Assembly (NCBI GenBank): GCA_038889235.1
Contig: JAWAHN010000001.1
Coordinates: 734,499 to 766,498 of the forward strand
Source of the DNA: Candidatus Jordarchaeales archaeon
GTDB lineage: Archaea > Asgardarchaeota > Jordiarchaeia > Jordiarchaeales > Freyrarchaeaceae
Reading direction: 5' to 3'
DNA length: 32,000 nucleotides
In this document: in pieces, positions 6,860-26,637 of the stretch
Numbering within the stretch: position 1 is the stretch's first letter
Layout of the letters: each line of letters starts with the position of its first letter
Notes under the pieces: generated by a model
The model's database searches: none
What the model saw: only the letters and a program-made list of their open reading frames with translations
What the model was told of the DNA's origin: nothing
Made by a program: the position numbers and the translations under genes

Positions 6860-7018
6860 GCCCCGGTGGTGTAGCCACCATAAAGAGGCTGTAACGGCCG
6901 AGCATACGGGACAGTGACAAGCCCCTAATGTCAACGACGGTGGCAGAACTCCCGCGACCCGGGTAGTATATCCATCTGATGGATATACTAGGGATTTCAA
7001 ATCCCGGCCGGGGCGCCA
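6860..7018 (+). tRNA. tRNA-Asp(GUC) with four introns (17/17a, 32/33, 37/38, 53/54)
   Basis: Removing 6877-6894, 6913-6928, 6934-6948 and 6964-6995 gives a 78-nt cloverleaf: GCCCCGGTGGTGTAGCC|CGGCCGAGCATACGGGAC|TGTCA|CTCCCGCGACCCGGG|TTCAAATCCCGGCCGGGGCGCCA. It has a 7-bp acceptor stem, G73, encoded CCA, and the anticodon loop CT-GTC-AC. Each intron forms a BHB or relaxed BHB motif. Confidence 0.88.
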
Positions 7019-23808: not shown

Positions 23809-25589
<1,781 letters not shown>

Positions 25590-26350: not shown

Positions 26351-26358
26351 ATTAATAA
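26351..26358 (+). promoter_or_regulatory. TATA box of tRNA-Glu gene
   Basis: ATTAATAA preceded by GCGAAAC, 30-37 nt upstream of the mature 5' end. Confidence 0.45.
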
Positions 26359-26387
26359 ACGACACTTTTAACCGGAATTACTCGAGT

Positions 26388-26524
26388 GCCTCGGTGGTGT
26401 AGCCACCCTATAGGCTGCAACGGCCAAGCATAAGGGGCTCAAGGTTCATAACCTGCCCACTCGACCCCTAGACCCGGGTTAGTCTTTAAGGACTAAGGGA
26501 ATTCAAATCCCGGCCGAGGCACCA
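26388..26524 (+). tRNA. tRNA-Glu(CUC) with three introns (17/17a, 34/35 inside the anticodon, 53/54)
   Basis: Removing 26405-26420, 26441-26460 and 26479-26501 gives 78 nt: GCCTCGGTGGTGTAGCC|CGGCCAAGCATAAGGGGCTC|TCGACCCCTAGACCCGGG|TTCAAATCCCGGCCGAGGCACCA. The 34/35 intron has a perfect GGGC/GCCC central helix and an AGGTT/AACCT inner helix. Confidence 0.9.
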
Positions 26525-26637
26525 CTTCCTTTTCTCGTAACAAAAGGCTGTCATTAAGTGACATTCCGTTTAACTAATAAATACAGGAAAACATTATTAT
26601 GTGTATTTTGAGGTTAAAATAAGGAAGGGGGCTAACT

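Follow-up and report, generated by a model that had tools for sequence, protein, structure and literature searches.

The tRNA genes of Freyarchaeia and Atabeyarchaeia are heavily interrupted, 92–95% of them carrying introns (PMC11291895), and a recent preprint that covers Jordiarchaeia puts the share of such introns missed by tRNAscan-SE at about 30% (bioRxiv 10.64898/2026.10.13.758758). In the Thermoproteales, the accessible parts of two earlier accounts name the intron positions 20/21, 22/23, 25/26, 29/30, 30/31, 45/46, 53/54, 56/57, 59/60 and 3/4, and 34/35 is not named in those parts (Kanai 2015, PMC4390854; Yoshihisa 2014, PMC4090602). On the enzyme side, Asgard archaea are reported to possess an (alpha-beta)2 EndA with an L1 loop that has been tied to a broad substrate range (Kaneta et al. 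2018, PMC5829648).

We describe here a tRNA-Glu(CUC) gene from a hot-spring Asgard archaeon, Candidatus Jordarchaeum. It lies in a stretch of 32,000 nt, called the window below, where it adjoins a TrpRS gene (window 24495-25589) whose product is 81-84% identical to proteins of Candidatus Jordarchaeia, Jordarchaeum and Jordarchaeales. It is the sole Glu(CUC) gene found in the genome, and in all probability it is functional, with three BHB introns that are removed by protein enzymes and a CUC anticodon that is assembled by splicing. In what follows we set out the anatomy of the gene and its spliced product, the conservation and covariation of its anticodon intron and the splicing enzyme genes of its host.

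Anatomy of the gene and its spliced product

The gene occupies window 26388-26524 (+), counted from acceptor base 1 up to and including the encoded CCA; its 137 nt exceed the length of a class-I tRNA by about 60 nt. The acceptor strands mark its ends, with GCCUCGG at the gene start and the complementary CCGAGGC near the end, followed by A73 and the encoded CCA. Three introns lie in between, at precursor positions 18-33, 54-73 and 92-114. The features are as follows, with H the central helix, h′ the intron-side helix, h the outer exon helix and an arrow at each cut.

26352-26359 (+): candidate TATA-like box (TTAATAAA), 29-36 nt upstream of the gene, read by eye
26388-26404 (+): exon 1, tRNA positions 1-17: acceptor 5′ strand, U8-G9, D-stem 5′ strand and start of the D-loop
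26405-26420 (+): intron 1, 16 nt, in the D-loop; weak BHB, H 4/4 including one G-U, h′ 2 bp, h 1 bp
26421-26440 (+): exon 2, remainder of the D-arm, anticodon-stem 5′ strand, C32, U33 and C34
26441-26460 (+): intron 2, 20 nt, in the anticodon between C34 and U35; HBh′, H GGGC with GCCC, bulges UC↓A and AC↓U, h′ AGGUU with AACCU, loop CAU
26461-26478 (+): exon 3, U35, C36, G37, A38, anticodon-stem 3′ strand, 4-nt variable region and T-stem 5′ strand
26479-26501 (+): intron 3, 23 nt, in the T-arm at 53/54; BHB, H 3/4, h′ 6 bp, h 2 bp
26502-26524 (+): exon 4, T-loop UUCAAAU, T-stem 3′ strand, acceptor 3′ strand, A73 and encoded CCA
26526-26535 (+): T-rich stretch directly 3′ of CCA, a possible archaeal terminator, read by eye

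A putative counterpart of the TATA-like box, TTAATAAAC, stands at the same distance upstream of the ortholog in genome G003. When the three introns are taken out, a regular cloverleaf of 78 nt remains, which ARAGORN calls tRNA-Glu(ctc) and whose anticodon loop reads CUCUCGA. The highest BHB score of the whole precursor is shared by the anticodon intron and the T-arm intron; shifting the cut of the latter one or two bases downstream gives an identical product. The D-loop intron has a weak motif, with a BHB score of 16 that falls under several decoy sites in the precursor, and its boundaries are drawn mainly from the gap-free match of the spliced product to intron-less Glu genes.

Other tRNA genes of this genome are interrupted as well. 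The tRNA-Asp(GUC) gene at window 6860-7018 (+) has four introns, in the D-loop (6877-6894), at 32/33 (6913-6928), at 37/38 (6934-6948) and in the T-arm (6964-6995), and its spliced 78-nt product is called Asp(gtc) by ARAGORN. The D-loop and T-arm introns occupy the same sites as those of the Glu(CUC) gene and resemble them. In the unspliced form, both introns of its anticodon loop receive poor BHB scores, which suggests ordered splicing. A further tRNA-like segment, at G000:C1:1074120-1074300 (+) in the source genome, contains inserts that appear to part its acceptor-stem strands from the body; these may be introns, one site being at or close to 7/8 and another in the T-stem or acceptor stem.

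The intron within the anticodon

The anticodon-stem strands AGGGG and CCCCU are separated by 27 nt. A 7-nt loop remains after any of eight possible 20-nt excisions, each of which we scored for a BHB. The motif is present in just one of the eight, 26441-26460, where the exon stops at C34 (26440) and restarts at U35 (26461). This confirms an intron within the anticodon at 34/35, as an earlier note on this DNA had proposed with coordinates that prove exact. An excision that would yield Val(CAC), with the cut after A (26441), was also considered and was rejected with 1/4 central pairs. In the 34/35 motif, G29-G30-G31-C32 pairs with the GCCC of 26455-26458 at all four positions, each a G-C pair, and the two 3-nt bulges, U33-C34↓A on the 5′ side and A-C↓U35 on the 3′ side, lie on opposite strands, each cut after its second base. 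The intron helix of 5 bp closes on its CAU loop. Among 20,000 shuffles of the 27 nt, 84 equalled the observed BHB score.

The outer helix, on the other hand, consists of the single pair G28-C36, followed by the mismatches A27.G37 and A26.A38. The strict hBHBh′ class has at least 2 bp in each flanking helix, and here h′ has 5 bp and h has 1 bp; the HBh′ class of the Marck and Grosjean nomenclature, as applied in 10.64898/2026.10.13.758758, comprises motifs with four central pairs and an intron-side helix of at least 2 bp. With an outer helix of 1 bp, the motif thus belongs to HBh′ and not to strict hBHBh′. Its earlier description as a perfect BHB is therefore too strong. In the RNAfold minimum free energy (MFE) structure, the 3′ side has a 1-nt bulge in place of the three.

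Since the intron splits the anticodon, CUC is absent from the gene as contiguous DNA and would be formed only upon ligation. The unspliced loop reads CU-CAA-G, as had been noted, and the CAA arises because the intron begins with A-A.

Glu identity of the spliced tRNA

The spliced product aligns without gaps with the intron-less 78-nt Glu(CUC) of another family in the same phylum (L019/L049). When the anticodon is masked and the product is set against the compact tRNA complement of that genome, the number of identical bases is 66 for Glu(CUC), 64 for Glu(UUC) and 63 for Asp, as against at most 56, with gaps, for class-II Leu tRNAs. The long variable arm of class-II Leu tRNAs is also missing, the variable region being 4 nt.

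We located Leu and Glu genes in the source genome by motif and blastn-short searches. A genuine class-II Leu(CAA) gene, with loop CUCAAGA, a long variable arm and A73, stands at G000:C1:991156-991299 (+), and genes for Leu UAG, CAG, GAG and UAA are present too. Two Glu genes, the CUC gene and a UUC paralog, were found by blastn-short and exon-by-exon searches, which returned no second Glu(CUC) gene in a genome that is 95% complete and thus leaves some room for another. The earlier note had named these points among its checks. The ARAGORN call, the masked-anticodon similarity, the gap-free alignment and the finding of a separate Leu(CAA) gene but no second Glu(CUC) gene together support both the Glu(CUC) identity that it assigned and its proposal that the anticodon identity is created only by splicing.

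Some neighbouring observations came out of the same searches. The Leu(CAA) gene is interrupted by introns beside the anticodon stem, within the variable arm and within the T-loop, and it lacks an encoded CCA. A third Glu-like match, at C1:443xxx, is Gln(CUG) and was set aside. So was C1:648534-648680 (G000), which has a Leu-like T-arm and acceptor stem yet is a Ser gene, with G73 and a GGA or UGA anticodon.

Conservation among Asgard families

In a search of 40 relatives for the Glu(CUC) gene, full-length orthologs came from the same genus and family, and matches elsewhere were partial and centred on the anticodon arm and its intron. The 34/35 intron is present in 19 distinct Glu genes, both CUC and UUC, from five GTDB families (f1, f2, f3, f15 and f20); the Glu(UUC) paralog of the source genome (G000:C1:666083-666213) is one of the 19. 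Families were counted only after inspection of the flanks, and a loose IUPAC pattern run over 301 genomes gave chiefly chance matches, at a level comparable to the reversed control.

All four positions of the central helix are paired in 19/19 genes, and one gene shows a compensatory change, with C at exon position 31 and G as its intron partner, so that G-C becomes C-G. The intron-side helix varies between 2 and 6 bp, with A-U, G-C and U-A as alternatives at the same position. Of the 57 cells that make up its first three base pairs, 55 are paired; when partners are shuffled, the count averages 43 and never exceeds 50. Every one of the 19 genes has the bulges U-N34↓A (5′) and A-N↓U (3′), with an invariant A both as the opening base of the 3′ bulge and as the intron's share of the 5′ bulge. 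Intron length ranges from 16 to 30 nt, and in 18 of the 19 genes the outer helix is a single base pair. Intron-less Glu genes are known in other families (L015, L019-L022), and the 34/35 intron is thus not universal in the phylum.

Read without splicing, positions 34-36 spell CAA in the majority of CUC genes and CAU in one of them; in the UUC genes they spell UAG or UAU. The likeness to Leu(CAA) is therefore a by-product of the first bases of the intron and is not conserved; the CAA mimicry appears incidental.

We raise tentatively, as a minority possibility, that the 34/35 intron goes back to one ancient insertion at the same bond of both Glu isoacceptors, that it is among the oldest traceable non-canonical tRNA introns, and that it has perhaps been selected. 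A single insertion may have a range of at least the Jordarchaeaceae, the Freyrarchaeaceae, the f3 lineage and two further Asgard families. Selective reasons may include barring the unspliced precursor from decoding, a modification step at the wobble base or removal of an integration site for mobile elements.

Recognition by tRNA finders and annotation

The native gene receives no call from ARAGORN in bacterial mode and no Rfam match at the gathering threshold or at E<=10. When the D-arm and T-arm introns are removed and the anticodon intron is kept, ARAGORN -i reports Glu(ctc), not Leu, with an intron after base 37 of the sequence, which corresponds to 34/35; f3 orthologs are likewise called Glu with a 34/35 intron. 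The tRNAscan-SE 2.0.12 table of the complete Freyarchaeia genome, on the other hand, lists 1545739-1545581 as 'Met CAT' with an intron at 1545685-1545670 (Valentin-Alvarado et al. 2024 Supplementary Data 4, PMC11291895). These coordinates are those of our Glu(CUC) ortholog L009 in genome G006; two adjacent rows also match tRNA ends at the locus, which identifies G006 as the published complete genome. The tabulated intron has the length of ours and is placed 3 nt downstream, at 37/38, turning CUC into CAU. The table contains no Glu row (PMC11291895), and a BLAST search of G006 for a Glu(UUC) gene did not find one, so it is either missing there or interrupted to a still greater degree.

The earlier note had expected automated annotation to label the gene Leu(CAA). 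An error of the same type has indeed befallen the Freyarchaeia ortholog, there as Met(CAT), but for the present gene ARAGORN and Rfam are silent, and ARAGORN, where it does respond, gives Glu and not Leu; the claim is thus only indirectly supported. Because neither ARAGORN nor Rfam sees the gene and a published table gives its ortholog as Met(CAT), statements on codon usage, tRNA complements or 'missing' tRNAs in these lineages need BHB-aware curation.

Over the whole source genome, ARAGORN -i returned 14 tRNAs only, several of them wrong, and such output is too faulty to serve as a tRNA inventory. Two of its calls, at G000:C1:481105-481197 and C1:1088321-1088413, are given as tRNA-Leu(taa) and are really near-identical tRNA-Ala(UGC) genes with G3:U70 and the loop UUUGCAC, in both of which the D-arm intron was mistaken for extra structure.

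Alternative readings of the locus

One alternative placement is the canonical 37/38 site. Excision of 26444-26463 does give the loop CUCAAGA and the anticodon CAA, as predicted, and ARAGORN accepts the resulting molecule as Leu(caa); the excised length is unchanged, the loop has 7 nt, and tRNAscan-SE chose the analogous placement in Freyarchaeia. The gene would then encode a class-I tRNA with a Leu anticodon on a Glu body, a recoding or mistranslating tRNA. We find this scarcely credible: 0/4 central pairs form at that site, which is without a BHB as had been stated, the anticodons of the orthologs would disagree (CAU, UAG and UAU), a long variable arm is missing from the Glu(CUC) body, the genome already has its Leu(CAA) and it would be left without Glu(CUC). 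The bond itself might instead be 33/34. C34 is the same base as the last intron base, C, so that 33/34 notation is also possible in the Glu(CUC) gene and the two placements are indistinguishable there, and the 1-nt bulge of the MFE structure could itself be the conformer that the endonuclease cleaves; either way the same product would arise through another bond. The 33/34 placement, though, has 3/4 H pairs only and no h′, and orthologs whose 3′ bulge reads AA↓U are compatible with 34/35 alone, which solely gives them the correct loop. We therefore rate a different bond as very improbable.

One could also take the gene for a decaying pseudogene or an unspliceable relic, in which case tRNA-Glu(UUC) would be the only reader of GAG codons. 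The gene does escape the standard finders, and of its three motifs one is weak and another relaxed. Against this, each of the four exons aligns gap-free with intron-less Glu genes, the helices show compensatory changes over five families, a TATA-like box is kept upstream, and most tRNA genes of the source genome look alike in this respect, so that decay seems highly unlikely.

Proposed splicing route

A functional gene spliced at 34/35 calls for a suitable set of enzymes. The genome encodes two EndA proteins, 196 and 195 aa long, and the two Pfam EndA domains occur in both of them; their genes lie at G000:C1:1056164-1056754 and C3:444282-444869. The first protein most resembles the catalytic chains in the heterotetramers of Aeropyrum pernix and Pyrobaculum aerophilum. 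The second, a paralog with 33% identity to it, has no His at the aligned YxxG...H site, which fits a role as the structural beta subunit. RtcB is encoded as well (E 1.6e-180), and the predicted alpha-like and beta-like EndA genes and RtcB that BHB splicing requires are thus all present.

Transcription would yield a 137-nt precursor with three BHB-type introns. In this precursor, G29-G31 and C32 would find their partners in the GCCC close to the 3′ terminus of intron 2 and not in the mature stem. The 4-bp central helix of the HBh′ motif would result, and the bonds to be cut, one following C34 and the other following the final base of the intron, would each lie in a 3-nt bulge, the two bulges being on opposite strands. 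The (alpha-beta)2 splicing endonuclease, with its two types of subunit, would cleave both bulges and RtcB would join C34 to U35, after which the anticodon stem could refold with C39-U43 to present the loop CUCUCGA. We infer that cleavage and ligation take place at these predicted bonds. The central helix takes three bases of the mature anticodon stem, so the splicing fold and the mature stem are alternatives, and refolding would be needed after ligation. The 1-bp outer helix and the 1-nt 3′ bulge given by RNAfold suggest that cleavage at the 3′ site needs an enzyme of relaxed specificity. A search of metagenome contigs for the spliced-junction pattern did not find it; tRNAs are seldom assembled in such contigs.

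Comparison with known systems

The Glu(CUC) gene is a well-supported case of a kind already published, that of heavily interrupted tRNA genes. Within the portions of the literature consulted, where the position string '34/35' is not searchable, there is no mention of an intra-anticodon intron in tRNA-Glu or of its conservation across Asgard archaea. Knowledge of the splicing mechanism is unchanged by it. Its practical value lies in annotation, since the position of the intron defeats or misleads tRNA finders. It is also a clear case, conserved over several Asgard families, in which the identity of a genetic-code adaptor is not contiguous in DNA, and it adds a dated marker to the debate on the origin and persistence of tRNA introns. 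Asgard archaea are the prokaryotic group nearest to eukaryotes.

The closest described cases are those of the same lineage. As in the Asgard surveys (PMC11291895; 10.64898/2026.10.13.758758), several non-canonical BHB introns occur per gene, D-arm introns are overlooked by annotators and motifs of the HBh′ class are counted as canonical; neither survey, however, treats tRNA-Glu or an intron inside the anticodon. The Thermoproteales belong to a different phylum, and there too, in the parts of the accounts consulted, a Glu tRNA with three introns is described, the pre-tRNA-Glu(UUC) of Pyrobaculum calidifontis, together with relaxed BHB motifs and a broad-specificity (alpha-beta)2 endonuclease as proposed here (Kanai 2015, PMC4390854; Yoshihisa 2014, PMC4090602). 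With the canonical 37/38 hBHBh′ intron the Glu intron shares the 4-bp helix, the two 3-nt bulges, each 3′ of a helix strand and cut after its second base, and, on our reading, the enzymes. In contrast to the canonical intron, however, its site lies 3 nt upstream, so that the anticodon itself is split, its outer helix is cut down to 1 bp, and its central helix borrows G29-G31 of the anticodon stem, making the splicing motif and the mature stem mutually exclusive.
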